Origin: an uncultured Gemmataceae bacterium
GTDB taxonomy: Bacteria > Planctomycetota > Planctomycetia > Gemmatales > Gemmataceae
DNA length: 64,000 bases
Reading direction: 5' to 3'
Assembly (NCBI GenBank): GCA_963701675.1
Contig: OY969623.1
Span: 6,450,599 to 6,514,598, forward strand
Position numbers and translations under genes: made by a program. Below the pieces are notes generated by a model. It was given only the letters and a program-made list of their open reading frames with translations, was not told the origin of the DNA and did not search any database. Below, piece after piece: positions 49,531-64,000 of this stretch (positions are counted from its first letter, which is position 1; each line of letters begins with the position of its first letter).

Positions 49531-50621
49531 CGGCGGCGCACACGTATGCGGCTCAACTGACACCTGCCGGGACCGGCGCGATCGCGACCGTCGCCGTGTG
49601 CGGTCCGCGCGCCTGGGAAGTGGCTGCTCGGCTTTTTCGGCCAAAATCTAAGTCGAGCTCCTGGCCGCCGGCAACGCCAACTGCCGATCACATTTGGCTT
49701 GGTCGTTTCGGCGAAACTACTCAAGGCGTCCTCATGGACGAAGTCGTGCTCTCCGTGCCACGCCTGAAGCCGACCCCGCGCGTGGAGATTCACTGTCACG
49801 GCGGCGCGGAGGTTGTGCGCTGGCTGTTGGAGCTACTGGATGCACAGGGCGTGCAGCGTTGTTCCTGGCAGGAACTGGAACGCCGTTTCACCGATGATCC
49901 GCTGGAAGTGTCGGCAAGGACGGCCTTGGCCGAAGCGTTGACCCTCCGAACGGCGGGCATCTTGCTCGATCAGTGCCACGGCGCCCTCCGCCGAGCGTTT
50001 GCCGCGATTGAAGCGGCAGAAGCGGCCGGCAATGCCGAGGGAGGCAGCCGATTGCGTGAAGAACTTCGCCGCTACGCGCCCGTCGGTTTGCATCTCACGA
50101 CGCCGTGGCGGGTGGCCGTGATGGGCGCGCCGAACGTCGGCAAGAGTAGCCTGGTAAACGCCCTGGCGGGATACCAGCGCACTATCGTGTCAGCCACACC
50201 TGGCACAACGCGCGATGTAGTCACGACGCTCATCGCCGTCGACGGTTGGCCGATCGAACTTTCCGACACCGCGGGCTTCAGGGAAAGCAGCGAGGTGCTT
50301 GAAGCCGAGGGGATCAAGCTTGCTCGGACGGCCGGGCAGTCGGCTGAGTTGTGTTTATGGATACTTGATGCAGCGACAGCGCCCGTCTTTCCGCCAACGG
50401 ACCTGAAGAATGTGCGCCTCGTGTTGAACAAGATTGACTTGCCGGCCGTTTGGGACGTTGAACAGGCATCGGCGCTCCGAGTGTCGGCACAGACCGGCGA
50501 AGGCATGGCGGATCTGGTTTCCAAACTTGCAGAGTGGCTGGTTCCGGAGCCGCCCCCCCCGGGTGCCGCTGTGCCATTCACGGCGGAAATTGCCAAAATG
50601 GTTGGAGCGACGACGCAATGA
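49527..50621 (+). CDS. mnmE: tRNA modification GTPase MnmE-like (short form)
   Basis: N-terminal 'GTGAIATVAVCGP', 'VEIHCHGG', and a G domain 'VAVMGAPNVGKSSLVNAL…TPGTTRD…DTAG'. Confidence 0.6.
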   Translation: MTAAHTYAAQLTPAGTGAIATVAVCGPRAWEVAARLFRPKSKSSSWPPATPTADHIWLGRFGETTQGVLMDEVVLSVPRLKPTPRVEIHCHGGAEVVRWLLELLDAQGVQRCSWQELERRFTDDPLEVSARTALAEALTLRTAGILLDQCHGALRRAFAAIEAAEAAGNAEGGSRLREELRRYAPVGLHLTTPWRVAVMGAPNVGKSSLVNALAGYQRTIVSATPGTTRDVVTTLIAVDGWPIELSDTAGFRESSEVLEAEGIKLARTAGQSAELCLWILDAATAPVFPPTDLKNVRLVLNKIDLPAVWDVEQASALRVSAQTGEGMADLVSKLAEWLVPEPPPPGAAVPFTAEIAKMVGATTQ

Positions 50622-50726
50622 AAATCAGCGTGGTGGGGTTTGCTGACAGCCAGGTTTTCCGTGTCAGGTGGCACAAGACATTTCTGTCTGTGGCCGCACA
50701 GACAGAAATGTCTGTACCACCGGGCT

Positions 50727-53070
50727 CTAGTTTTCTGACGGTCTAGAGCCGAATTCCATCGCGAACGGGTCAAGAACCAAGTGCAGCCGCTTGATCGCCG
50801 CGGCACGTCCTGGCGGAAGGATTCGTTTGGGCGTGGCCGCGGGATCGGATTTCGCGACATCGGGTGGCGAAGTGCGAATTAGTTTTACGGCTGATCTCCG
50901 TATTCCATCCGGCTCATCCTCAAGCGGCATCGGCGGCCAGATGCCGTCGTTGAGCACGACAGCGACACCATTCTCTAGCGCGGCCACGACATCCAGCCAG
51001 CCGATATCCGCGAGTGCCACTGGTGCCTGAACGAAAGAACTGCCTGGATAGGGGAAATCACCCACGGAGAACTGACAATCATTCTTAAACGTGCCATCGC
51101 CGTTTCCTATCAAGAGGCTCACGGTGCCGCCCCAATGATTGCCCACGATCAAATCCACGTTGCCATCGCCACTGACGTCGCCGGCCGTGATCGTCCGAGA
51201 TGTATTGCCGACCGCGTAGCTAGTCGGCGCGGAAAAAGTCCCGTCGCCATTACCGGAGAGTACGCGAACACTACCGACGTTAGAATCGCTTGTAACGGCC
51301 AGATCGAGGTCACCGTCTCCATCAAAGTCTTCCGTCACCAAATCGTAGAGAGACGATCCGGCTGCGAAGCCGGCCGCCGGCTGAAACGTGCCGTTACCGT
51401 TCCCCAGGAGAATACTTATCGTGCCGGCAACCTTGTTCCCGGTGGCGAGGTCTGGTTTGCCGTCGGCGTCGAAGTCCCCGATCCCCACACTGCGGGGCTC
51501 GTTGCCCGTGTCGAACGTGAGACCCGAACCAAACGTCCCGTCGCCAATTCCCAGCAGAATTTGCACCGAATCGCCGACGCTATCGGCGATGACAAAATCC
51601 AAGTCGCCATCGCTATCAACATCAGCGGTGGCGATAGCGAAAATCGTGTTACCACCGGAAGGATAGCTGACGAAAGGCTTGAACGTCCCGTCACCGTTGC
51701 CGAGGGCGACGCGTACCGTCTCCTCGAAGTTTAATCCGACCGCAACATCGAGGGCCCCGTCACCGTTGAAATCTCCTGATGTGAATCCTCGTGTACCACT
51801 CCCGATGAGGTAGGACCGCGATTTCTCGAAGGTCGCATTTCCCACGCCAAGCATTACCGTCAGATACCCGGGGCCACCGTTGTTGCCTTCCGACAATATC
51901 AAATCGACTTCACCATCTCCGTTGAGGTCCGATGGAGCGATCCCCCAAGGGTGTTTGGGAGCGGCGGAAATCAGCCATTCAGTGAACACCCCTCCGCCAA
52001 GCCCGATCTGAAACGTCACAGTCCCGCCGGTGGTCACATTGTTGGCGATGGCGATGTCCGGCACTCCGTCGCCGGTGTAATCGCGAATCGCCGCGCCGCT
52101 GACGCCGGTGCCGGCAATGTACGGCCCCGCGGTCTGGAACGACCCGTCCCCGTATCCCAGGTTCAGGTGGAATTGCTCTGGACCCAACGCAATAAAGTCG
52201 AGTTTACCATCTTGATCGAGGTCCTCCGTGTCTATCAAGTGCACACTGGTTCCGGCGGAATACACTCCTGCGATTTGGAATGTGCCGTCGCCATTGCCCA
52301 AGCGCACGATCACTGTTCCATCAGTATTGGCAACTGCCAGGTCGGGGTTGAAGTCAGCGTTGTAGTCGGCGACGGAAACATCGTTCGGGGTTCCTTCGTT
52401 GTACTGCGCCGAACCAGAACGTGCCGTCGCCATTACTCAAAAGGATGGCCGTCTTGGGTGCGGAACTGAAGTTGCCTACGGTGACGATGTCGTAGAGGCC
52501 GTCGCTGTTGAAATCGCCGGTCGATACCGCCCGCATTTTTGTGCCCATGTCGTAGCTGACCGTATTTTGGAAGGCGCCGCCGCCCAGACCGGTGAGAACG
52601 GTAACATTTCCGAGGTCGTAGTTGGCCACGACTAAATCAATGATTCCATCGACGTTGAAGTCTGAATACCCTACGGAAGTGGGATTCGCTCCGGCCTCGA
52701 AAGTCATTGGTCGACGAAACAACCCGGTGGCCGATCCACGGAGCACGGCGATCTCATCGTTGGGCCCTGAGTAATTATCGTTCGTCACCACCAGATCGAG
52801 CCGGCCATCGCCGCTAACGTCGACCGCGACCAATGACGTCGGGTTATTGCCGCCGGTTGGAAAGCTCTTCGGTGCTCCGAACGTGCCGTTGCCGGCGTTC
52901 AGCATAATGCTGATGGAGCCCGGCTTGGTTTGATTGGTCACGACGATGTCGTAGAGCCCATCGCCGTTGAAATCGTCGCTCACGACGTCTGATGGCGACG
53001 CACCCACCAAGATCGCCTGCGGCGCGGCGAAGCTCGGCACATCCCGGCGTTCGAGGGCTTCCAGGGTCAA
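50727..53070 (-). pseudogene. FG-GAP/VCBS-repeat beta-propeller protein, paralogue 1, split by a +1 frameshift near 52400-52420 (or a sequencing error)
   Basis: N-terminal 'MTLEALERRDVPSF'; repeating '…LGNGDGTF…DFNGDG.LDL…' units; overlapping ORFs 52354-53070 and 50727-52433 join into one continuous FG-GAP repeat. Confidence 0.7.
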
Positions 53071-53141
53071 CCGGCGATAGCGGTTAGTCTGAGAGTTTTG
53101 CGACTCATGACAACCTCTCCTCCTAGCAAAGCGTCTTGGGA

Positions 53142-56100
53142 CTATGTCATTTCAATCGAAAGTACATCACCAAGCGGATCGTGTCCGGCGGCAATTGCGT
53201 ATCGCACGGCGGGACGTATGCGGTGAGCGTGGGCTCCGGGTTTCGCCGTGTCGTCAACGGTTGCCAACCGGTGAATTCGAGGATTCGATTCGACCGTGTG
53301 CGTTGTCGATTTGTCTGGCTTCGTAAATGCCGATGCGGCGAGCATTCGGACGTCCGCCCCCGGCCCGTCGCTGATCGGCAGCGGCGGCCAGTCGGCGGCG
53401 TTAAATAGGATCGCCATGCTAATTTCGTTGACGGCTGCGATGTCGACGAAACCGTCGCCGTTGAAGTCGCCGACGGTCAAGTCGAGTCCTTTCGCCAACA
53501 CCGCATACACGAGCGGCGCTTTGAACGTCGCGTCCCCATTACCCAAAATGATGCTTACGGCGCTCGGCGCTACAACGGCGAAGTCGAACTTTCCGTCGCC
53601 GTTAAAATCCGCCGTTACGATTCCCGCTACAGTACCCGTACCGGTGGTGATGACAATTGGGACCTGAAAAGTGCCGTCGCCGTTGCCAAGCAGCAATCGC
53701 ACGGTGCCTGGACTGACGTCATTCGTTACCGTTACGTCGGTGTTGCCGTCGGCGTTGAAGTCGCCGGTTGCGAGGAATTCCGGTTTCGTCCCCGCTGGAA
53801 ATGCCGTCGACGATTGGAACGTGCCGTCGCCGTTGCCGAGAAGAACGCTGATCGTTCCACCATCATAATTGGCAGACACGATGTCCAGAATGCCGTCATT
53901 ACTTACATCGGTGACGGCCACATAGAGCGGTAGTTTGCCGACTGCATACCCTTGCACGGAAGGATAAACACCGCCGCCACCTGAGGCGAGGAGCACTTCG
54001 ACTGTCGGTGGATTCGTTTGAGGACTGCTCGATGCCAAGTCAAACAAACCATCGCTGTTGAAATCGCCGCCGGCTGTCAATCCACCTTCATAGACGGCCG
54101 GTCCGGGGAAAGAGCCGTCCTGCTCATTGAGCAAAACATGGGCGCCAATGTTGCCGACACCCACAATGTCGCGAAAGAGATCACCATTGAAGTCCGCGAC
54201 GGCAACGGACGAAATCGCCGAGCCCAAAACATAGCGAGACGGAATCCCAAAAGTTCCATCGCCATTCCCGAATCGAACCGCGGTTATCGATTCTAAGACC
54301 GTTACGAGATCGAGTATTCCGTCCTCGTTCAGGTCATCGATCGCCAGGCTAGCCGGCTCAGCGTACACGTCGGGCGCGGCTACGAACGTCCCGTCTCCGT
54401 TTCCGAGACGTACGCACAGTAACGGGCACGCGATGCTGACAATGTCCTGAAATCCGTCATTGTTGACGTCTGCGACATCGACATCCGGTCTCGGAGCGCC
54501 GACTGCTACCAGCGTGGCGGCACTGAATGTCCCATTGCCGTTACCCAAGAATAAATGCAGTCCGTAATTGGGATAGGTCCCCCCGTTGGCAACGAGATCT
54601 GCTTTGCCATCGCTGTTGAAATCGCCGCCGGCTAGCGCCAGTGGCTGGTAAATCGAGGTGTTAATCGACATACCAAACGTGCCGGCGCCCAGGTTCAGTA
54701 ACACGCGAATTCCATTACTCGTGGCCAGCCCCAGATCGAGTTTGCCATCACCGTTGTAGTCGTCGGCGACAATTCCCACGCCGGTGCCGCCGCTGTTATA
54801 GCCGACCGCCGGTTCGAAAGAACCGTCGCCGTTCCCGAGCAGAACGCTGGCAGTCGAGCCGGCGGCCGCTACATCGAGGAACCCATCGCCATTCAAGTCG
54901 GCAACCGCAACCGCACTGGGCGTCGTCACCACAGCCACAGTGCTCGGCGGACGGAAGGAGCCGTCGCCGTTCCCCAATAATATGCTGACGTTCGCGGCGC
55001 CTCCGACGTTGTTGGGCACGACCATATCCAGGATTCCGTCCTGGTTGAAGTCGCCCAGAGCGACATCGTCCGGTTTCGGCCCTGCGTTATAAAGCGGCGC
55101 TTGAAAGTATCCCGAGGGGCCGCCGAGATGGATCGTGGCGTAGTAACGTCCGACGGCATAATCTTGGAATCCATCGTTATTCAAGTCGTGCACGATGACG
55201 TCGCCGCCACCTTCGGACTGTATGCTGGTGCCGGCGGAAAAGGCGCCGTTCCCGAGCCCGTTGAAAGTCAGGATGTGCGACGTCCACAACGAGCTGAGGA
55301 TGATGTCGACGGAGTAGAGCACGGTCAGGTCCAAAATGCCATCGACATCAACGTCGTGCGCGGTAATGCCATTGGCGTCGCCCCCGGTGGGCATGGAATA
55401 AATGGGGAGCGCGCTTAGAGCACCGCCGCCGGTACCGAGAAGGATTGTTGCCGAGTCGCTCGCACGATTCGATGTAGCGACATCCGGAAGACCATCGCCG
55501 TTAACATCTGCCACGGCGACGGCGACTGGGATGTCACCAACGGAATAGCTGACGCGGCGGCGCAAAGAACCGAGTTGATTTCGCAACACCGTAATCGTGC
55601 TCGCCGTGTTGCCGACGATGATGTCGACATCCCCGTCGCCATCCATGTCCGCGCCGGTGATGGAATTCGGCTTGGTGCCCGCCGGGTATGTCTTCGGTGG
55701 CAAGAACGTGCCGTCGCCGTTACCGCGCAAAACGTCGATCGTGTCGCTGTTGTTGTTCGTCAAGACGATGTCGAAATGGCCATCCCCGTGAAGTTCGGTG
55801 ACAACCAGAGATCCGAAGCCGTTTCCGATCCAAGTGGGTGGCTGAAACGAACCGTCGCCGTTACCGATCATGATCTGCAACGCACCGCCAACGGCGAGGT
55901 CCGGGATACCATCCGAATTAAAGTCCGCGGCAGCGACAGCGATGGGACTGGAGGAAACGGCGTAGCCGGTAAAGTGAAACGTACCGTCGCCGTTATTAAG
56001 GAGCACCACCAGGCCGCCATTGAAGGCATCATTGGTTACGGCCAGATCAATGTCTCCATCCGCATCGAAGTCATCGAGCGCCAGTCCCGCCGAATGGAAA

Positions 56101-56510
56101 CCAGCTCCAATCTTTACCACAGTCTGGAATGTCCCGTCGCCGTTGCCGAGATTGATGGATACTTCACCGTGTTGATAGAGGGTCGCAACCACATCAAGCC
56201 GGCCGTCGCCGTTCATATCCGCCACACCGACCGACTGTGGATCGCCTCCGACGGGATAGTTTGTTGCCGACTGAAATACGCCACCGCCCTGGCCCAAAAG
56301 GATGCTTATGGTGTCTGCGGGGCTGTACATCTTGTCGTTAGCGGTCACGATGTCCACATTGCCGTCGCTGTTGAAATCAGCCATGGCAATCGATCTGGGT
56401 TCATCGCCCGTCGGCACCAGCAGCGGCGCGAAGAAACTCAATAGATCGCGGCGTTCGAGCGGTTCCAGAATCAAGGGTCGTTGCCAATTCTTGTTCACGA
56501 GCCGACTCAT
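53142..56510 (-). CDS. giant FG-GAP/VCBS-repeat protein, paralogue 2 (1122 aa)
   Basis: N-terminal 'LILEPLERRDLLSFF'; more than 20 FG-GAP units; C-terminal 'NAADWPPLPISDGPG…SIEMT'. Confidence 0.8.
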   Translation of the reverse strand: MSRLVNKNWQRPLILEPLERRDLLSFFAPLLVPTGDEPRSIAMADFNSDGNVDIVTANDKMYSPADTISILLGQGGGVFQSATNYPVGGDPQSVGVADMNGDGRLDVVATLYQHGEVSINLGNGDGTFQTVVKIGAGFHSAGLALDDFDADGDIDLAVTNDAFNGGLVVLLNNGDGTFHFTGYAVSSSPIAVAAADFNSDGIPDLAVGGALQIMIGNGDGSFQPPTWIGNGFGSLVVTELHGDGHFDIVLTNNNSDTIDVLRGNGDGTFLPPKTYPAGTKPNSITGADMDGDGDVDIIVGNTASTITVLRNQLGSLRRRVSYSVGDIPVAVAVADVNGDGLPDVATSNRASDSATILLGTGGGALSALPIYSMPTGGDANGITAHDVDVDGILDLTVLYSVDIILSSLWTSHILTFNGLGNGAFSAGTSIQSEGGGDVIVHDLNNDGFQDYAVGRYYATIHLGGPSGYFQAPLYNAGPKPDDVALGDFNQDGILDMVVPNNVGGAANVSILLGNGDGSFRPPSTVAVVTTPSAVAVADLNGDGFLDVAAAGSTASVLLGNGDGSFEPAVGYNSGGTGVGIVADDYNGDGKLDLGLATSNGIRVLLNLGAGTFGMSINTSIYQPLALAGGDFNSDGKADLVANGGTYPNYGLHLFLGNGNGTFSAATLVAVGAPRPDVDVADVNNDGFQDIVSIACPLLCVRLGNGDGTFVAAPDVYAEPASLAIDDLNEDGILDLVTVLESITAVRFGNGDGTFGIPSRYVLGSAISSVAVADFNGDLFRDIVGVGNIGAHVLLNEQDGSFPGPAVYEGGLTAGGDFNSDGLFDLASSSPQTNPPTVEVLLASGGGGVYPSVQGYAVGKLPLYVAVTDVSNDGILDIVSANYDGGTISVLLGNGDGTFQSSTAFPAGTKPEFLATGDFNADGNTDVTVTNDVSPGTVRLLLGNGDGTFQVPIVITTGTGTVAGIVTADFNGDGKFDFAVVAPSAVSIILGNGDATFKAPLVYAVLAKGLDLTVGDFNGDGFVDIAAVNEISMAILFNAADWPPLPISDGPGADVRMLAASAFTKPDKSTTHTVESNPRIHRLATVDDTAKPGAHAHRIRPAVRYAIAAGHDPLGDVLSIEMT

Positions 56511-56619
56511 GGGTTCACTCCTCCTTCACCCGTCTCGGAGCAGCGTGGAAGTGACGTTGCCGTCCGCGCCGCTCTGAGAGCGGCGGCTAAACAAATCTCG
56601 AGTCAATCGCAATGGTCCG

Positions 56620-59600
56620 TTACTCCAACTCTGTCGCAAACCAATCAAACGCAGGGTCAGTCGTTGCAACCAGTGCAACACGGCCGATGTGGCGAGGGGC
56701 AATCTTCAGGCGGGGCGGAATGGCCGGGATATCCGCAGATGCGGACATTGCGCGCTTGAAAGTTTGCCCTTCGGTACGGGTCGGCTGCGGGTTCGAGGCG
56801 ATGTCGCCGACGTCCGGCGGCTCAAACGCCCCCGGCCCGTCGCCGATCGGCAGCGGGGGCCAGTCGGCGGCGTTGAGTAGCACCGTCACGCCTTCCCGGC
56901 TGCCGGCCGCGATGTCGAGCCAGCCATCGCTGTTGAAATCGGAAACAAGGATGGCCGCCGGGTTGAAACCGGAAACGTAAGTCAGCGGCGATTGCAGGGT
57001 GCCGTCGCCGTTGCCGATCAAGACTTGAATCTTGCCTGCGATGACGTTGTTGACCACGGCCATGTCGGGAGTGCCGTCGTTGTTGAAATCACCGGTGACA
57101 ACCGCGGATGGACTGGCGCCGACTGCGATGGTTTGCGGCGCCTCGAATGTGAAGTTGGTCTTGGCGAGCAGGACGTGGACGTTGCCGGTCGACGCATCCC
57201 CCGAAGTGACGATCAGGTCAAGGCGGCCATCGCCGTTCATGTCGGCCGCAGTGATGGACAATAGATTCGGGGCGACGGCGACTGTCAGCGGTCGGCGGAA
57301 TTGGCCAGCGCCGTTGCCGCGCCACACGGTGATAGTGCCGCTGCCTTTGTTGGCGACGGCGAAGTCAAGGTTGGCGTCGCCGTTGAAATGCCCGATCACG
57401 ATATCGACGGGATTGGCGCCGACCGCCTTGACGACCGGCGCTGCGAAGGTGCCGTTGCCGTTGCCGAGCAGGATGCTCGTAGTACCCGCAGCTTGGTTGT
57501 TCGTGACCGCAAGGTCTAGGATGCCGTCCGCGTTGAAGTCCGCGCCGGCAACGGAGGATTGCGAGGCGCCGCCCGCGAATGCGATATGGGTCGCAAAGAC
57601 CCCGCCGGTGTTCAAAACCACATGGATTTGGTTCGGATTAAGGTCGGATAGCACCAGGTCGAGAAAACTGTCGTTGTTGAGGTCCGCCGTTGTGAGCTGC
57701 CAAAGCGGCTCGCCTGGAATCATGTACTTTTGGGGTGGCATATAAGTCGCGTCGCCGTTGCCGCGGAAGACCTTTATCGTAACCGGAACGGAGTTCCCGG
57801 ATCCCAAATCCACTGCCGCCAGATCAGCATGACCATCATGATCGAAATCGCCGATGACCACGTTTCGCACGTCATCGAATTGAGGAATGAAGATTGCCGC
57901 CTGAAAGGTGCCGTCGCCGTTATTGATCAAGAGCACCACGTTTTCCGGATCGCCGCTGGAGCTGGCCATCGCCAAGTCCGGGAATCCATCTTCATTGAGA
58001 TCGCCAGCCGTGATTGACTGTGGATTGGTCCCAGCGGGATAGCTGGTCTGCGCCTGGAAGGTGCCGTCCCCATTACTTAGAAACACACTCACCGAATTAG
58101 CCGAGTGGTTTCCGGTGGCGACATCCGGGCTGCCGTCGCCGTTGAAGTCCGCCGAGGTAGCCTGAAAGGCCCCGGCATCAGCCGCGTAAGCCACGAAAGG
58201 CATGAATGTCCCATCGCCATTGCCCAAGAGCACACTCATGAAGCCGGAGCTGCAAGCGGCCGCAATGTCGACGTTGCCGTCGCCGTTCCAATCTCCGGTG
58301 GTCACGTGGCCGGTCCCAGTCGCTGCGGCAAAGGTAACTCTGGGCAAGAAGGTGCCGTCGCCGGCGTTCAGCAAAACGCTCACGGCGCCGAACCCGTTGC
58401 CTGCAACAATATCCGGATAATCGTCCCCATTGAAATCGCCGGAAGCGAGTTCACGCCCGCCCGTGTTGTAGATGGCGGGCGCCGCAAGCGTTCCATTACC
58501 GACCCCAAAATAGACGGCCGCGTTGTTGGCACCCGCAACCGCGACGTCCGCGATTCCGTCTTGATTGAAGTCGGCCACGATCGGTGAAGCAATATTGCCG
58601 ACATCCGGATCATAACTTTTGGAGGTCAGCAGGCCGGAGCCACCGCCTAACAATACAGTGCCGAGCCCATCGGGCACGTCGTGAACGGTGGCCACGTCCG
58701 GTCGGCCGTCCCCGCTAAGATCGCCGCCAGCTAGCGATGTGCCAAAACCCCGAGTCACGTAATTTGTCGGCGCCCCGAAGCCACCGGCTATCTCTCCTGG
58801 AAGGACCTGTACGTCGTTCAGCCGACCGATGACGAGATCCTTCAATCCATCCGCTGTGTAGTCGTCGAACAGCATCCCGGCCAGACTGTGACCGGAGACA
58901 TATGAGTGAGCGGCGCGGAATGTACCGTCGCCTAAGCCCAGCATGATGTTTGCCGACCCGGCGTAGTTGTCCGCGACGGCGACGTCCAACGCGCCGTCCG
59001 CATTAAAGTCGGCCAGGGCCAGGCCGCGAGGCGAACTGCCGGCGACATAACTTACCGCAGGCTGGAATGTGCCGTCGCCGTTGCCGAGTCGAACGGTCAC
59101 GCTTTGTTTGTTCTCATTCGCCACCATGAAATCCAGGTTGCCGTCGTTGTCGAAGTCGTCAGCCGCGATGGTAGCCGCATTACTCCCCGCGATAAAGTGG
59201 GTGGCCGGTTGAAACGTGCCCGTGCCCGTGCCGCGGAACAGACTGACAAGCGATGGTTGAAATACGTTGGCAGCCACAAGGTCCAGGTTGCCGTCGTTGT
59301 CGAAATCCCCCGATGCGACCGACGAGACAGCCGACGACGTCGCGTAGCTCACGGGACTTGCGAACGCACCACCACCGGTGCCGATCAGAACGTTTACTTG
59401 CGACGCATAATTCCCCACGACCAGATCGGCGATGCCATCCTCGTTCCAATCATCCACCGCCACGGCATCCGGAAAAGTGCCGGCGGCGTAATCCGTCCGC
59501 GGTTTGAAAGTGCCGTCTCCACGGCCGAGGAACACACTGATCGAATCGCTGAAGCGATTGACCGTCACTAAGTCCGTAATCGTGTCGCCGTCTAGATCGG

Positions 59601-60051
59601 CTGTCGCTACCGCGCGAGGCGTGTCGCCTGAGCCATAACTGACCGCGAGCGAAAACGAACCGTCACCGTTGCCCAGTAGGACGCGAACAAGATCCGAGCC
59701 TTCGTTCGTCACCGCGAGATCGAGTTTCGCGTCGCCGTTGAAATCGGCAATGGCGATGCTGTTGGGATCGGTCCCGGCGCTGTAGTCGGTCTTCGGAGTA
59801 AACGAACCGTTGCCGTCACCCAATAGAATGCTCACCGTACTTCCAACGAAGTTGGCGATGGCAAGGTCCGGCGCACCATCGGTATCGAAATCGGCGACAG
59901 CCACCGCACGGGCCTCAACCCCGGCCGTATGTGATGTTGCGCCGAAGAAACTCGGCACGTCGCGACGTTCCAATGCTTCCAAGAATAGCCGCTGTGTCCG
60001 GAACACTTTCGCGAGTCGAGAAATGCTGCGAGTCACCTGAAAGTCCTCCAT
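56620..60051 (-). CDS. giant FG-GAP/VCBS-repeat protein, paralogue 3 (1143 aa)
   Basis: N-terminal 'LFLEALERRDVPSFF'; FG-GAP units; C-terminal 'NAADWPPLPIGDGPG…FATELE'. Confidence 0.8.
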   Translation of the reverse strand: MEDFQVTRSISRLAKVFRTQRLFLEALERRDVPSFFGATSHTAGVEARAVAVADFDTDGAPDLAIANFVGSTVSILLGDGNGSFTPKTDYSAGTDPNSIAIADFNGDAKLDLAVTNEGSDLVRVLLGNGDGSFSLAVSYGSGDTPRAVATADLDGDTITDLVTVNRFSDSISVFLGRGDGTFKPRTDYAAGTFPDAVAVDDWNEDGIADLVVGNYASQVNVLIGTGGGAFASPVSYATSSAVSSVASGDFDNDGNLDLVAANVFQPSLVSLFRGTGTGTFQPATHFIAGSNAATIAADDFDNDGNLDFMVANENKQSVTVRLGNGDGTFQPAVSYVAGSSPRGLALADFNADGALDVAVADNYAGSANIMLGLGDGTFRAAHSYVSGHSLAGMLFDDYTADGLKDLVIGRLNDVQVLPGEIAGGFGAPTNYVTRGFGTSLAGGDLSGDGRPDVATVHDVPDGLGTVLLGGGSGLLTSKSYDPDVGNIASPIVADFNQDGIADVAVAGANNAAVYFGVGNGTLAAPAIYNTGGRELASGDFNGDDYPDIVAGNGFGAVSVLLNAGDGTFLPRVTFAAATGTGHVTTGDWNGDGNVDIAAACSSGFMSVLLGNGDGTFMPFVAYAADAGAFQATSADFNGDGSPDVATGNHSANSVSVFLSNGDGTFQAQTSYPAGTNPQSITAGDLNEDGFPDLAMASSSGDPENVVLLINNGDGTFQAAIFIPQFDDVRNVVIGDFDHDGHADLAAVDLGSGNSVPVTIKVFRGNGDATYMPPQKYMIPGEPLWQLTTADLNNDSFLDLVLSDLNPNQIHVVLNTGGVFATHIAFAGGASQSSVAGADFNADGILDLAVTNNQAAGTTSILLGNGNGTFAAPVVKAVGANPVDIVIGHFNGDANLDFAVANKGSGTITVWRGNGAGQFRRPLTVAVAPNLLSITAADMNGDGRLDLIVTSGDASTGNVHVLLAKTNFTFEAPQTIAVGASPSAVVTGDFNNDGTPDMAVVNNVIAGKIQVLIGNGDGTLQSPLTYVSGFNPAAILVSDFNSDGWLDIAAGSREGVTVLLNAADWPPLPIGDGPGAFEPPDVGDIASNPQPTRTEGQTFKRAMSASADIPAIPPRLKIAPRHIGRVALVATTDPAFDWFATELE

Positions 60052-60097
60052 TTAGGTTGATGCTTAGTCGCCGTTCTGCGAGCGGCGGCTAAGCCAA

Positions 60098-62464
60098 TTA
60101 GGTCAACTCCGTCGAAAACAAATCCAACGCCCGATCAATCGTTTCAGGATGCGCGATGCGGGCAATATGGCGCGATGCGTAAGTCGTTCGGGGCGTAATC
60201 ACTGCTTCGTGCACGCCTACGGCGCGGTGGTGAACTGTCGGTGTCGTCTCGAGCCGCGTTGGATTGAGGACTGTATCGCCGACAAGGGGTGGCGTGGACG
60301 GCCGCGGCCCGTCGTCGATCGGCAGCGGCGGCCAGTCGGCGGCATTTAGCATAATTGCGATCTTGCCAATGTAGGCGCCGCTGTAGTTACTCGTGGCCAC
60401 GACATCGGGGAACGCATCACCGTTGAAATCAGCGATTGCCAGGTCGTCGCTGTCGGGTTGATACGTTATTCCTGCCTGGAACGTCCCGTCGCCCTTTCCG
60501 AGGAACACGATAGTCCCCGATGCACCGGCAACGGCTAGATCTACGGCGCCGTCCAAATTGAAGTCGGCGACGGTGATTTCAAGCGGATCTTTGCCGGCGG
60601 CGTAACTGACGGGCTGTTGGTATTGGCCGTTTCCGATGCCCAGAACAATACTGATCGTGCCGGACGTCATCCAATTGGCGACGACAAAATCAATGTTGCC
60701 ATCCCGATTGAGGTCCGAAGCCATCATGGAGCGCGGTGAAGGGCCGGCATTATAAACACTCGGCATGTTACCGAATGTGCCATCGCCGCCTCCCCACAGC
60801 ACATGGAATGTCGAAAAAGTATAATGGCTAGTCACAACATCCAAGAAGCCATCGCCGTTGGCGTCCTGTGCCAAAACGCTATTCGGATTATTTTCCGTCG
60901 GATATCTCACTTGAGGCTTGAACGTGCCATTCCCGTTGCCCAACAGCACGCTCACGTCGTCACTGTCACTGTTTGACGTGGCCACATCCAGGCTACCGTC
61001 GCCGTTAAAATCAGCCACCGCGATCGCGTTGGGCCAGTTGCCCACGCTGAATTCGGTCCTTGGTCTCAACGTGCCGTCGCCGTTGCCTAAGAATAGGCTG
61101 ACTTTCGCTATCTCCGTGTTCGCAATCACTACGTCGAGGACGGCATCGCCATCAAAATCCGCCACTTGCAAATCGGTTGGACTGTTTCCCGGCGCGTATG
61201 ATACGGGGGACATGAGAATGCCGCCGGCTTGTGCGATGAAGACGTATAACAGGTCGTTTGAGCGGTCGGACACAATCAGGTCGCTGTCGCCGTCGCCGTC
61301 CATATCAGCGGCGGCGACGTCTTCCGGCGCCTCAACCACGGCGGTGGACGCGATGGCGGCGAAGGCACCGGCGGTTAGCGTACGCAGGACGGTTACGGTG
61401 TTATCACCGGAGTTGGCAGTAACTACGTCTTCCTTGCCATCGCCGTCAACGTCAGCAGTCGTCGCCGCCGCCGGTCTCTGACCGACCACGTAGGCTTCAC
61501 CGATTCGGAAAGTTCCGTCGCCGTTACCCAGCAACAACCCCATAGTGCCGGGATAGGTCCAATCGAAATTACTGACCGTCACATCTTGGTTGCCGTCAGC
61601 GTTGAAGTCGCTCATCGCGATGCAAACGGGTTCCTCGTCAACGAGCGTGGTGAGCGCCGGCTGAAACGTGCCATCGCCATTGCCTAACAAGGTGCTCAGT
61701 GTGGCGGTGTCTTCGTTGGGTACGGCGAAGTCGGGAATCGCGTCGTTGTTGAAGTCTCCGATTTGCAAGGCCGACGCGTATCCATTGGTTGCAAAAGAAG
61801 TCGGAGCGCCAAACGTGCCGTTGCCGTTATTCAACGACACCGTCACATGCTTGAAAAAGGTATTGGCTACGACCAGATCGGGGTGACCGTCATCGTTGAA
61901 ATCCGCAGCCGTTATGAATTCCGGACCGGCGCCGACCGGTAGGCTGCCTGACAGTTGTAATTGGCCGGAACCTTGGTTCAAAAGGATGCTGATGGTCCCG
62001 TAATCGTCTGCCGTGGCGACATCCAAATCGCCGTCGCCGTCAAGATCTGCTCCAGTTACGGCACTCGTGCCTAGGCCGGCTGCGAAGCTGACGGGACGTC
62101 GGAACACACCGGTCCCGGATCCCCGCAACAAGCTAACATTGTTGGTGCCGGAGTTGGCCACGACGACATCGACTTTACCGTCGCCGGTGAAATCACCGAG
62201 CGCGAGCGAAGTTGGATCGTTGCCACCCGTCAAAAAACCCTTCGGGGCTGAGTAGGCGCCGCCTGTATTCAGCAGTACGCTTACTGCACCCGGTTTGGAC
62301 TTGTGGGTCACGATTAGATCGCTGAGCCCGTCGCCATTCACGTCGGCCGCCGCCAGCGCGGAAGGCGATAGCCCGATGGGGAAGGCGGGCGCGGTGACGA
62401 AGCTCGGCAGGCCCCGCCGTTCTAAGGCTTCCAAAGCCAATCGTCTGCTGCGAACGCGAGTCAT
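60098..62464 (-). CDS. FG-GAP/VCBS-repeat protein, paralogue 4 (788 aa)
   Basis: N-terminal 'LALEALERRGLPSF'; FG-GAP units; C-terminal 'NAADWPPLPIDDGPR…FSTELT'. Confidence 0.8.
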   Translation of the reverse strand: MTRVRSRRLALEALERRGLPSFVTAPAFPIGLSPSALAAADVNGDGLSDLIVTHKSKPGAVSVLLNTGGAYSAPKGFLTGGNDPTSLALGDFTGDGKVDVVVANSGTNNVSLLRGSGTGVFRRPVSFAAGLGTSAVTGADLDGDGDLDVATADDYGTISILLNQGSGQLQLSGSLPVGAGPEFITAADFNDDGHPDLVVANTFFKHVTVSLNNGNGTFGAPTSFATNGYASALQIGDFNNDAIPDFAVPNEDTATLSTLLGNGDGTFQPALTTLVDEEPVCIAMSDFNADGNQDVTVSNFDWTYPGTMGLLLGNGDGTFRIGEAYVVGQRPAAATTADVDGDGKEDVVTANSGDNTVTVLRTLTAGAFAAIASTAVVEAPEDVAAADMDGDGDSDLIVSDRSNDLLYVFIAQAGGILMSPVSYAPGNSPTDLQVADFDGDAVLDVVIANTEIAKVSLFLGNGDGTLRPRTEFSVGNWPNAIAVADFNGDGSLDVATSNSDSDDVSVLLGNGNGTFKPQVRYPTENNPNSVLAQDANGDGFLDVVTSHYTFSTFHVLWGGGDGTFGNMPSVYNAGPSPRSMMASDLNRDGNIDFVVANWMTSGTISIVLGIGNGQYQQPVSYAAGKDPLEITVADFNLDGAVDLAVAGASGTIVFLGKGDGTFQAGITYQPDSDDLAIADFNGDAFPDVVATSNYSGAYIGKIAIMLNAADWPPLPIDDGPRPSTPPLVGDTVLNPTRLETTPTVHHRAVGVHEAVITPRTTYASRHIARIAHPETIDRALDLFSTELT

Positions 62465-62490
62465 AGGTGTGCTTCCTTTCTGAGCGGCGA

Positions 62491-63927
62491 GAGATATTCT
62501 CGAATGATGGGTTCTAGTTGAGAGGGAAAAGGCGGCGTATCCTGCTGGTGATTTGGATTTACTTCATCAGCTGACCCAACGAGGATACGCCATGAACGAG
62601 ACTACGGCATTCAGTATTGAAAAACCAGAGGTTGGTTCCGTGGATCTGGAAGTGGCCCACTTCCGCGAGCGATTCGAAGGGCGCCGGCTTCTCGATGAGG
62701 TGGTCCACCACGGCGCTCAGCAGATGCTCCAAAAGGCCATTGAGGCCGAGGTCCAGGAGTTTCTCCAGGAGCACCATGGGCGGCGCGATGGCAGAGGTAA
62801 TCGCCTGGTCGTTGGCAACGGTCGCAAGCCGACGCGCAAGATCGTGACCGGCGCCGGCGTGTTGGAGATTCAGCAGCCACGCGTGCGGGACAACTCGCCG
62901 AACCGGGACGAGCGGGTGCAGTTCAGCTCGGCACTGTTGCCTCCGTACCTTCGGCGCAGCAAAGCGATCGAGGAGTTCATTCCCTGGCTTTACCTCAAAG
63001 GGATTTCCACGGGAGATTTTTCGGAGGTGCTCCAGTCGCTGTTGGGCGAATCTGCCAAGGGGCTGAGTCCGAATGTGATCGTTCGTCTCAAGGAACAGTG
63101 GACCACGGAGTACGACGAATGGAATCGGCGTGACCTCAGCGGCAAATCGTACGTCTACATTTGGGCCGATGGCATCTACGTCAACGTGCGCCTCGAAGAC
63201 ACGGAAAAAAAGCGGCAGTGCATGCTGGTGCTCATGGGCGCGACTGCGGACGGTCACAAAGAACTGATCGCGGTCATGGATGGCTATCGCGAGAGCGAGC
63301 AGAGTTGGTATGAGCTGCTCGTCGATCTGAAGCAACGTGGGTTAACGCTGACCCCGCAGTTGGCGACGGGTGATGGCGCCTTGGGATTCTGGGCGGCCCT
63401 TCGCAAGGTATATCCGGAGACACGGGAACAACGTTGCTGGGTGCACAAGACGGCCAATGTTCTCAACAAGATGCCCCGGAGTGTGCAGCCCCGAGCCAAG
63501 GCTGATCTCCATGAAATCTGGTTGGCGGAGACGCGGGAAGCGGCCAACCAAGCGTTCGACAAGTTCCTCGCCAAATATCAGGCGAAGTACGAAGAAGCCT
63601 GGGAATGCTTGCGGAAGGACCGTGAGGTGTTGTTGGCCTTCTACGACTTCCCGGCGGAGCACTGGAAACATCTGCGAACGACGAATCCGATCGAATCGAC
63701 ATTCGCGACGATTCGTCTTCGCCACCGAAGAACGAAAGGGAGCGGTACGCGGAAAACGAGCTTAGCGATGATGTTCAAGTTGGCCCAGGCCGCTCAAAAG
63801 CGATGGCGACGGCTCAATGGCCATGAGCACCTGGCACCGCTTCTTCAAGGAAAGATTTTTGTCGACGGAGTATTGCAGGAAGCCGCCTGATCCCGGATTC
63901 CTGGAACCCAAGATTTGACAATATCTC
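62491..63927 (+). mobile_element. IS256-family insertion sequence (about 1.44 kb) with imperfect terminal inverted repeats and a 9-bp target-site duplication GAGCGGCGA
   Basis: IRL gagatattctcgaatgatgggttc (62491-62514) against the reverse complement of IRR gagatattgtcaaatcttgggttc (63903-63927); direct repeats at 62482-62490 and 63928-63936. Confidence 0.75.
62592..63890 (+). CDS. IS256-family (mutator-type) transposase
   Basis: '…YVYIWADGIY…CMLVLMGATADGHKELIAV…QRCWVHKTANVLNKMP…' matches the Transposase_mut DDE signature blocks. Confidence 0.85.
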   Translation: MNETTAFSIEKPEVGSVDLEVAHFRERFEGRRLLDEVVHHGAQQMLQKAIEAEVQEFLQEHHGRRDGRGNRLVVGNGRKPTRKIVTGAGVLEIQQPRVRDNSPNRDERVQFSSALLPPYLRRSKAIEEFIPWLYLKGISTGDFSEVLQSLLGESAKGLSPNVIVRLKEQWTTEYDEWNRRDLSGKSYVYIWADGIYVNVRLEDTEKKRQCMLVLMGATADGHKELIAVMDGYRESEQSWYELLVDLKQRGLTLTPQLATGDGALGFWAALRKVYPETREQRCWVHKTANVLNKMPRSVQPRAKADLHEIWLAETREAANQAFDKFLAKYQAKYEEAWECLRKDREVLLAFYDFPAEHWKHLRTTNPIESTFATIRLRHRRTKGSGTRKTSLAMMFKLAQAAQKRWRRLNGHEHLAPLLQGKIFVDGVLQEAA

Positions 63928-64000
63928 GAGCGGCGATCGCTAGCCCGCTTTAGCGTCACCGTTTCAATCCCAATCCGCCGTGATCAAAATCGAGGAATGG

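Follow-up and report, generated by a model that had tools for sequence, protein, structure and literature searches.

The locus analysed here raises the question of what an insertion sequence (IS), lying immediately upstream of a gene with FG-GAP/VCBS repeats (g1), does to the expression of that gene and of the paralogues g2, g3 and g4, which follow it in tandem on the same strand. The window, that is, the whole stretch of DNA analysed, is 64 kb long and comes from contig OY969623.1 of an uncultured Gemmataceae bacterium. A first-pass annotation had described an IS256-family element at 62482-63936, flanked by an intact 9-bp target-site duplication (TSD) and inserted 26 bp upstream of the first FG-GAP gene, and had suggested that expression of the array may now depend on the IS. 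The account favoured here, with high confidence, is that of a simple insertion of an intact IS256-family element, which duplicated GAGCGGCGA and is oriented divergently from g1, its effect on the host genes being most likely disruptive or neutral.

When the window sequence is read directly, the IS proper spans 62491-63927 (1437 bp): the element is where it had been placed, but the earlier bounds counted in both copies of the TSD. The left flank reads ...TTTCT, followed by GAGCGGCGA and then by GAGATATTCTCGAATGATGGGTTC; the right end reads GAACCCAAGATTTGACAATATCTC (63904-63927), followed by GAGCGGCGA (63928-63936) and by TCGCTAG. The two ends form imperfect 24-bp inverted repeats (IRs), where the left one (IRL) and the reverse complement of the right one (IRR) are identical at 20 of 24 positions, or at 22 of 26 over a longer stretch. 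The two positions just beyond the IR tips mismatch, and, because the match ends exactly at the tips, the boundaries are sharp. A degenerate IR pattern, tolerating up to three mismatches, finds only these two sites in the window, none being expected in shuffled sequences; the shape of IRL is conserved in relatives.

The 9-mer GAGCGGCGA is present exactly twice in the window, either strand counted, and both copies adjoin the IR tips. Two copies of a 9-mer anywhere in 64 kb are common (51 of 100 shuffles), and the significance of the TSD lies in its placement: at a fixed position, all 9 of 9 bases would agree with a probability of about 4e-6. When the empty site is rebuilt with the 9-mer in single copy, it reads ...CTAGCGATCGCCGCTCAGAAAGG... 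on the array strand and restores a motif, TAGC..CGCCGCTC..AGA, found elsewhere only upstream of the next two genes of the array; this supports, from within the window, that the flanks were once contiguous around a single copy of the 9-mer. An uninterrupted allele was searched for in the metagenome contig collection, by using a 25-mer across the g1 leader and the TSD, with no matches. Near-identical IS ends, also sought in metagenomes, gave seven matches, none of which has the body of this IS in common, and are uninformative.

The sole long open reading frame (ORF) inside the element (62592-63890, plus strand) encodes a transposase of 432 residues. The ATG at 62592 is taken as the start because a Shine-Dalgarno (SD) sequence, AGGA, lies 7 nt upstream, because the codon is conserved in the alignment of relatives, and because the resulting length is the commonest among the best 120 homologues. 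An alternative TTG start at 62553, giving 445 residues, was discarded for these same reasons.

The transposase scores 223 bits with the Pfam model Transposase_mut (PF00872; cut-off 21) and 328 bits with the NCBIfam model "IS256 family transposase" (NF033543; cut-off 150), where profile positions 2-334 of 338 are covered; the sister models ISH6 and IS1249 score far under their cut-offs. Among solved structures the only match is the ISCth4 transposase, TnpA (6xg8; E=1.9e-30, 109 bits). In this alignment D193, D261, E368 and the pair C282/H285 are found opposite residues D178, D244, E351 and C265/H268 of the 6xg8 chain; the chain has 410 residues, three more than the 407 of the protein, which shifts the numbering to D175, D241, E348 and C262/H265. 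In ISCth4 the first three are the catalytic DDE residues and the last two belong to the C/DxxH motif (PMC7780238). The DDE spacings are 68 and 107 here versus 66 and 107 in ISCth4. As the DDE and CxxH residues align to the ISCth4 active site, the transposase appears catalytically intact.

The IS256-family identity proposed at first reading is thus borne out by the two models and by the aligned residues. The remaining features of the family are also present: a single ORF, a size in the range of about 1.2-1.5 kb, imperfect IRs and a TSD of 8-9 bp, which is the range of IS256-family elements. The element is an unremarkable addition to a known family.

On the side of the host gene, 26 nt separate the ATG of g1 (62464, minus strand) from the first base of the IS (62491). 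The N-terminus of g1, MTR...LEALERRGLPSF (MTR..LEALERR..PSF), and its C-terminus, NAADWPPLP...STELT, both agree with those of eight or more paralogues encoded in this genome, and in the rebuilt empty site the ATG is preceded by in-frame stops, at 11 and 13 codons. Because of these stops and of the paralogue-like N-terminus, the insertion is in the leader, not in the coding sequence, and truncation of the latter is ruled out. The distance of 26 nt, and the retention of only the SD-like AAGGAAG, are confirmed from the sequence.

The transposase gene and g1 are divergent, and g1 faces the left IR; transposase transcription cannot, therefore, read into the array. The outward TTGACA of the clade sits in the right IR, pointing away from the array, while the left IR reads TTCGAG at the position equivalent to the -35 box. 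The fusion promoters of such ISs arise from an outward -35 box in IRR (PMC9330008; PMC7780238), and, because the end which bears it faces away from the array, IS-driven expression of g1 is disfavoured. The effect of the insertion on the host is most likely disruptive or neutral, not activating. Features of the locus are reported in Table 1.

Table 1. Coordinates of the IS element, of the flanking duplication and of the genes of the FG-GAP array in the 64-kb window
Feature	Position	Strand	Basis or remark
TSD, left copy, GAGCGGCGA	62482..62490	.	adjoins IRL tip
IRL, GAGATATTCTCGAATGATGGGTTC, holding the -10-like TATTCT at 62495-62500	62491..62514	+	IR comparison, relatives
Transposase leader stem-loop, with outer stem GGCGTATCCT/AGGATACGCC over the SD just before the ATG, plus inner hairpin	62534..62591	+	pairing in relatives
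Transposase gene, 432 residues, intact, D193/D261/E368 and C282/H285	62592..63890	+	profiles, ISCth4 alignment
IRR, with TTGACA at 63915-63920 directed outward and away from the FG-GAP genes, 7 nt from the tip	63904..63927	-	
TSD, right copy, GAGCGGCGA	63928..63936	.	adjoins IRR tip
Remaining native g1 leader, SD-like AAGGAAG at 62472-62478, 7 nt from the ATG	62465..62481	-	
FG-GAP/VCBS repeat gene g1, 788 residues	60098..62464	-	N- and C-termini intact, paralogue-like
g2	56620-60036	-	start probably GTG
g3	53142-56510	-	
g4	50727-53106	-	two frameshifts
Probable 3' end of upstream FG-GAP paralogue g0, ...PFLDFDHGGLGLKR-stop, TGA 63958-63956	63956..64000	-	14 codons

By a scan of genome contigs, 585 related loci were collected, and IS ends were located in these loci. 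An identical transposase is on record from a single contig of 8,725,057 bp, taken as the source genome since seven other window proteins are encoded there too. The best genome-borne relatives are two copies (L001 and L002) in the Planctomycetota metagenome-assembled genome (MAG) MFD01213.bin.2.22: their transposase is 81% identical in amino acids and their DNA about 76%. Both elements are 1444 bp long, are bounded by exact 9-bp TSDs and have IRs built in the same way (GAGGTATTCTCGAAAG... / ...TTGACAATACCTC). The closest copy found (L088, in the JGI metagenome contig Ga0683364_0189143) is 92% identical in DNA across all 1437 bp. The flanks of all three differ from those of the window, those of L088 being unrelated. 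The IRs of the window element differ from those of most relatives, reading GGGTTC instead of GTGTTC.

Exact 9-bp TSDs are found in at least 16 relatives, and several more are off by one base. Examples are GTCAACTCT (L001), GTGGATTGA (L002), AGCTTGACG (L004), AGAATGCGA (L020) and CGTCCTTTT (L089), and no target consensus emerges among the TSDs of relatives. A duplication of 9 bp is the norm for this clade; for ISCth4, IS256 and ISPaes3 TSDs of 8 bp are reported (PMC7780238, PMC3281130).

The clade extends over Planctomycetota, Acidobacteriota and other phyla, and many genomes carry several copies of its members. Four to nine listed copies per genome are seen in MAGs of Vicinamibacterales, Planctomycetaceae, Alphaproteobacteria and Bryobacterales (L022-L025, L030-L035, L053-L058, L071-L079). 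Most of these multi-copy relatives feature a left IR of the type GAG.TATAACCGAAAG, where the -10-like sequence is TATAAC, and a right IR of the type ...TTGACAATA.CTC.

The two ends of the element are not equivalent, and the difference may be related to the way it moves. IS256-family elements are mobilized by copy-out/paste-in through a circular form, in which a -35 box from the right IR and a -10 box from the left IR are joined, over a few bp of spacer, into a strong, transient promoter (PMC7780238; PMC9330008); in ISCth4 the junction promoter is composed of TTTACA and TAAAAT, the junction spacer being 5-6 bp (PMC7780238). For the window element, a 6-bp junction spacer would give TTGACA-N17-TATTCT, matching the sigma-70 consensus at 10 of 12 positions. 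The IR asymmetry at the -35 and -10 positions is conserved in relatives, where IRR features TTGACAAT and IRL features TATTGT, TATTCT or TATAAC; such conservation is expected if the difference between the ends is functional. The sequence is thus compatible with a split promoter such as copy-out/paste-in elements have. By this scheme the element would probably move by copy-out/paste-in, its promoter becoming complete only once the ends are joined, through the 6-bp spacer, in the circular intermediate.

A second conserved feature is found in the 101-nt leader of the transposase, where the SD is enclosed in a perfect 10-bp stem (GGCGTATCCT/AGGATACGCC) that extends as far as the ATG, with an inner hairpin nested in it. 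When both helices are compared among 14 relatives, standard pairs fill 92.9% of the pair cells, a share that falls to 34-48% with slid partners; in the inner helix three pairs are changed on both sides in a compensatory way. The predicted hairpin would make the SD poorly accessible, which fits a translational damping of the transposase. An alternative folding is proposed by RNAalifold for the leader of the window element and of L001-L020: here the SD segment finds its partner in the left IR, in the inner part of the repeat.

These features bear on whether the element can still move. That it is recent and still mobile, as suggested at first, is plausible: no damage is seen in the ORF, in the catalytic residues, in either IR or in the TSD, and the element retains its leader structure and its putative split promoter. 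Close relatives, moreover, are multi-copy in other genomes, and are often found on contigs of about the size of the IS (about 1.4-1.7 kb), as is usual for repeats when metagenomes are assembled. All this speaks against the view that the present copy is immobile and fixed, either old or single-copy. Such a view is rather unlikely, but some observations would suit it: the window contains one copy of the IS, with no second copy or fragment, and an identical 9-bp TSD can last for a long time.

For the host genes, a sequence of events may be proposed. By simple insertion, the IS would have entered a short spacer devoid of coding sequence, at 26 nt from the start codon of g1 on its upstream side, and 9 bp would have been duplicated. 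The gene would be left with its SD only, severed from transcription coming from upstream, and the IS end which it faces would supply no recognisable promoter. Transcription of g1 would originally have come, probably, as read-through from a paralogue lying just past the edge of the window. If the tandem genes are co-transcribed, the insertion would have a polar effect on g1, which might extend to g2 and g3; if they have promoters of their own, only g1 would be affected.

The existence of an upstream paralogue, named g0, is suggested by the last 45 nt of the window. On the array strand they form an open frame, PFLDFDHGGLGLKR-stop, and the stop is found 13 nt before the motif mentioned above. The encoded tail resembles the C-terminal tails of paralogues, such as DDPFLVDLT in P0181 and DPAFDWFATELE in g2, while LDPFAMEF is contained in g4. 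Given this resemblance, and the occurrence of the same motif after the stop as at other junctions, it is fairly probable that a further paralogue ends at 63956, and that the IS occupies a g0-g1 spacer of about 45 bp inside the array. A search for a protein with the tail PFLDFDHGGLGLKR returned no candidates. The description of g1 as the first FG-GAP gene is therefore probably wrong. Likewise, the earlier statement that the IS separates g1, and perhaps the whole array, from its native promoter holds in so far as the leader of g1 is cut down to its SD, but a position of the IS ahead of the whole array is doubtful, an insertion inside it being the probable situation.

It is also conceivable, though unlikely, that the insertion has no effect at all: g1, g2 and g3 would be transcribed by read-through, or from promoters of their own which are not recognised, and the IS would be a mere passenger. 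The ORF of g1 is intact and native at both ends; within the IS, the minus strand contains no strong intrinsic terminator, only one weak terminator-like match being found (63495-63475); and the spacers upstream of g2 and g3 (61 and 109 nt) could hold promoters. On the other hand, the 26 nt left to g1 are too short for a promoter plus a leader, and a transcript entering from upstream would include 1.4 kb of untranslated antisense RNA, which is a typical substrate for Rho-dependent polarity.

As g1 retains a native leader of only 26 nt, its transcription must either cross the IS or begin in it. The second case corresponds to the dependence on the IS proposed by the first-pass annotation: the IS end would supply an outward or hybrid promoter, from which g1, and perhaps the whole array, would be expressed. 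IS256-family fusion promoters, composed of a -35 box from the IR and a -10 box from the target, are indeed documented (PMC7780238, PMC9330008, PMC3281130). Here, however, the proposal is very improbable: besides the orientation of the two ends, conserved in relatives, and that of the transposase promoter, which reads away from the array, the best relaxed sigma-70-like match toward g1 is CTCTCA-17-GAGAAT, with 7 of 12 positions, in a group of bacteria whose promoters are poorly defined. A sigma-70 consensus scan of 62300-64000 on both strands found no promoters. The argument from orientation is stronger than the lack of a consensus match.

Some points weigh against the account favoured here. 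The sigma-70 scan finds no sites in the 12.5 kb of the array (50000-62500), against 4.8 +/- 2.0 in shuffles, so that the absence of a consensus promoter is weak evidence; the rules of promoters in Planctomycetota are, in general, poorly known. Read-through from upstream, across the 1.4-kb IS and into g1, is possible. Moreover, the window contains a single copy of the IS, whose current activity is therefore only presumptive, and the case for g0 is made from 14 codons, at the very edge of the window. With these points taken into account, the orientation of the element still makes an uncoupling or silencing of g1, and possibly of g2 and g3, likelier than a driving role of the IS.

The motif restored by the rebuilt empty site deserves a separate description. 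In the form TAGC(N0-3)CGCCGCTC(N0-2)AGA it has three array-strand sites in the rebuilt window, and none in 200 shuffles. The sites, all on the minus strand, are found at 56573-56589, 60075-60091 and 62479-62490 plus 63937-63942, upstream of g3, g2 and, once the IS is removed, g1, respectively. The motif is located 7 nt past the stop of g1 and 32 nt past that of g2, while the third site spans the rebuilt insertion site, with the TSD within it. In the g1-g2 spacer it forms the 5' arm of a predicted hairpin (-21 kcal/mol, z -2.1), which begins 6 nt past the stop; the rebuilt g1 spacer, on the other hand, has no stable fold (-8.6 kcal/mol, z +1.05). The motif could be an intercistronic element involved in processing, stability or termination, or could be merely inherited along with the duplicated genes.

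An insertion directed by the motif may be considered, since the TSD, which reads TCGCCGCTC on the array strand, is part of a sequence unique to the upstream regions of the three genes, and since one relative (L061) has CGGCCGCTC as its TSD. This reading deserves little credence: the TSDs of other relatives share no consensus (for example GTCAACTCT, CATAATTAT and AGAATGCGA), no insertion is seen in the motif at its two other sites, and the unstable fold of the rebuilt g1 spacer goes against it. For this last reason, an insertion targeted to a hairpin was also dropped.

Least credible is a role of the IS as a reversible on/off switch, which by inserting and excising precisely would control the paralogues downstream, a behaviour reported for IS256 in the ica operon of Staphylococcus epidermidis; if true, it would imply a population-level variation of the planctomycete cell-surface repertoire, and a frameshifted g4 would be in keeping with variable or relaxed selection on the array.

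The genes of the array belong to a family of FG-GAP/VCBS proteins from the same genome (P0126-P0181, g1-g4), with at least 12 members of about 790-1170 residues, which have in common the segment (L/F)LE.LERRDVPSF, at the N-terminus, and the segment NAADWPPLPIGDGP, at the C-terminus. Outside the source genome, the nearest homologues of g1 are 31-40% identical; the homologue search found none above 40% identity, and no orthologous locus in the collections. For g2, the probable start is the GTG at 60036 (MTRSISRL...), preceded at 7 nt by GGAGGA and in better agreement with the MTR... N-termini of paralogues; an alternative ATG at 60051 (MEDFQV...) fits them less well. The sequence of g4 contains two frameshifts. 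The first follows codon 13, where MSRKTLRLTAIAG-stop is continued by LTLEALERR in another frame; the second is located near 52400-52430, where ...GDGTFWFG is continued by QYNEGTPNDVSVADYNADF, again in another frame. Either g4 is a pseudogene or the frameshifts are assembly errors; the source annotation keeps an N-terminal fragment of 238 residues as a protein. In the array region defined above, terminator-like sites number 5, versus 13.2 +/- 4.4 in shuffles. Exact look-ups of the g1 and g2 proteins found no record in a collection of 15 billion proteins, which, in contrast, does contain from the source contig the transposase, g3, the fragment of g4 and six more window proteins: either g1 and g2 are without protein annotation in the source record, or they were left out of the collection.

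The significance of the element beyond the annotation of the locus is small: it is a well-formed member of an IS256-family clade featuring 9-bp TSDs, a putative split promoter and a leader predicted to occlude the SD. The case shows, however, that which IS end faces a gene needs to be checked before a hybrid promoter is invoked.

Among the closest known systems is ISCth4 of Clostridium thermocellum (6xg8, 6xgw, 6xgx; PMC7780238). It likewise features imperfect terminal IRs and a size of about 1.4-1.5 kb (1503 bp, with 24 of 31 IR positions matching; ISPaes3 is 1393 bp long; PMC7780238, PMC3281130); its -35 box, in the right IR, and its -10 box, in the left one, combine into a promoter when a junction spacer of about 6 bp lies between them (PMC7780238), an arrangement with which the window sequence is compatible. 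The two elements differ in that the transposases are distant (109 bits), the IR sequences are different, and the TSD is of 8 bp in ISCth4 and of 9 bp here; furthermore, ISCth4 is AT-rich and comes from a Firmicute, while the element described here is found in a planctomycete window of 58.6% G+C. With IS256 itself, the type element from Staphylococcus and Enterococcus, the window transposase shares the family model NF033543. For IS256, circular intermediates and hybrid promoters are described (PMC7780238, PMC9330008), and its TSDs are of 8 bp and AT-rich (PMC7780238), versus 9 bp here. Activation of genes by IS256 is documented, through fusion promoters; in the locus described here, in contrast, the end bearing the -35 box faces away from the gene.

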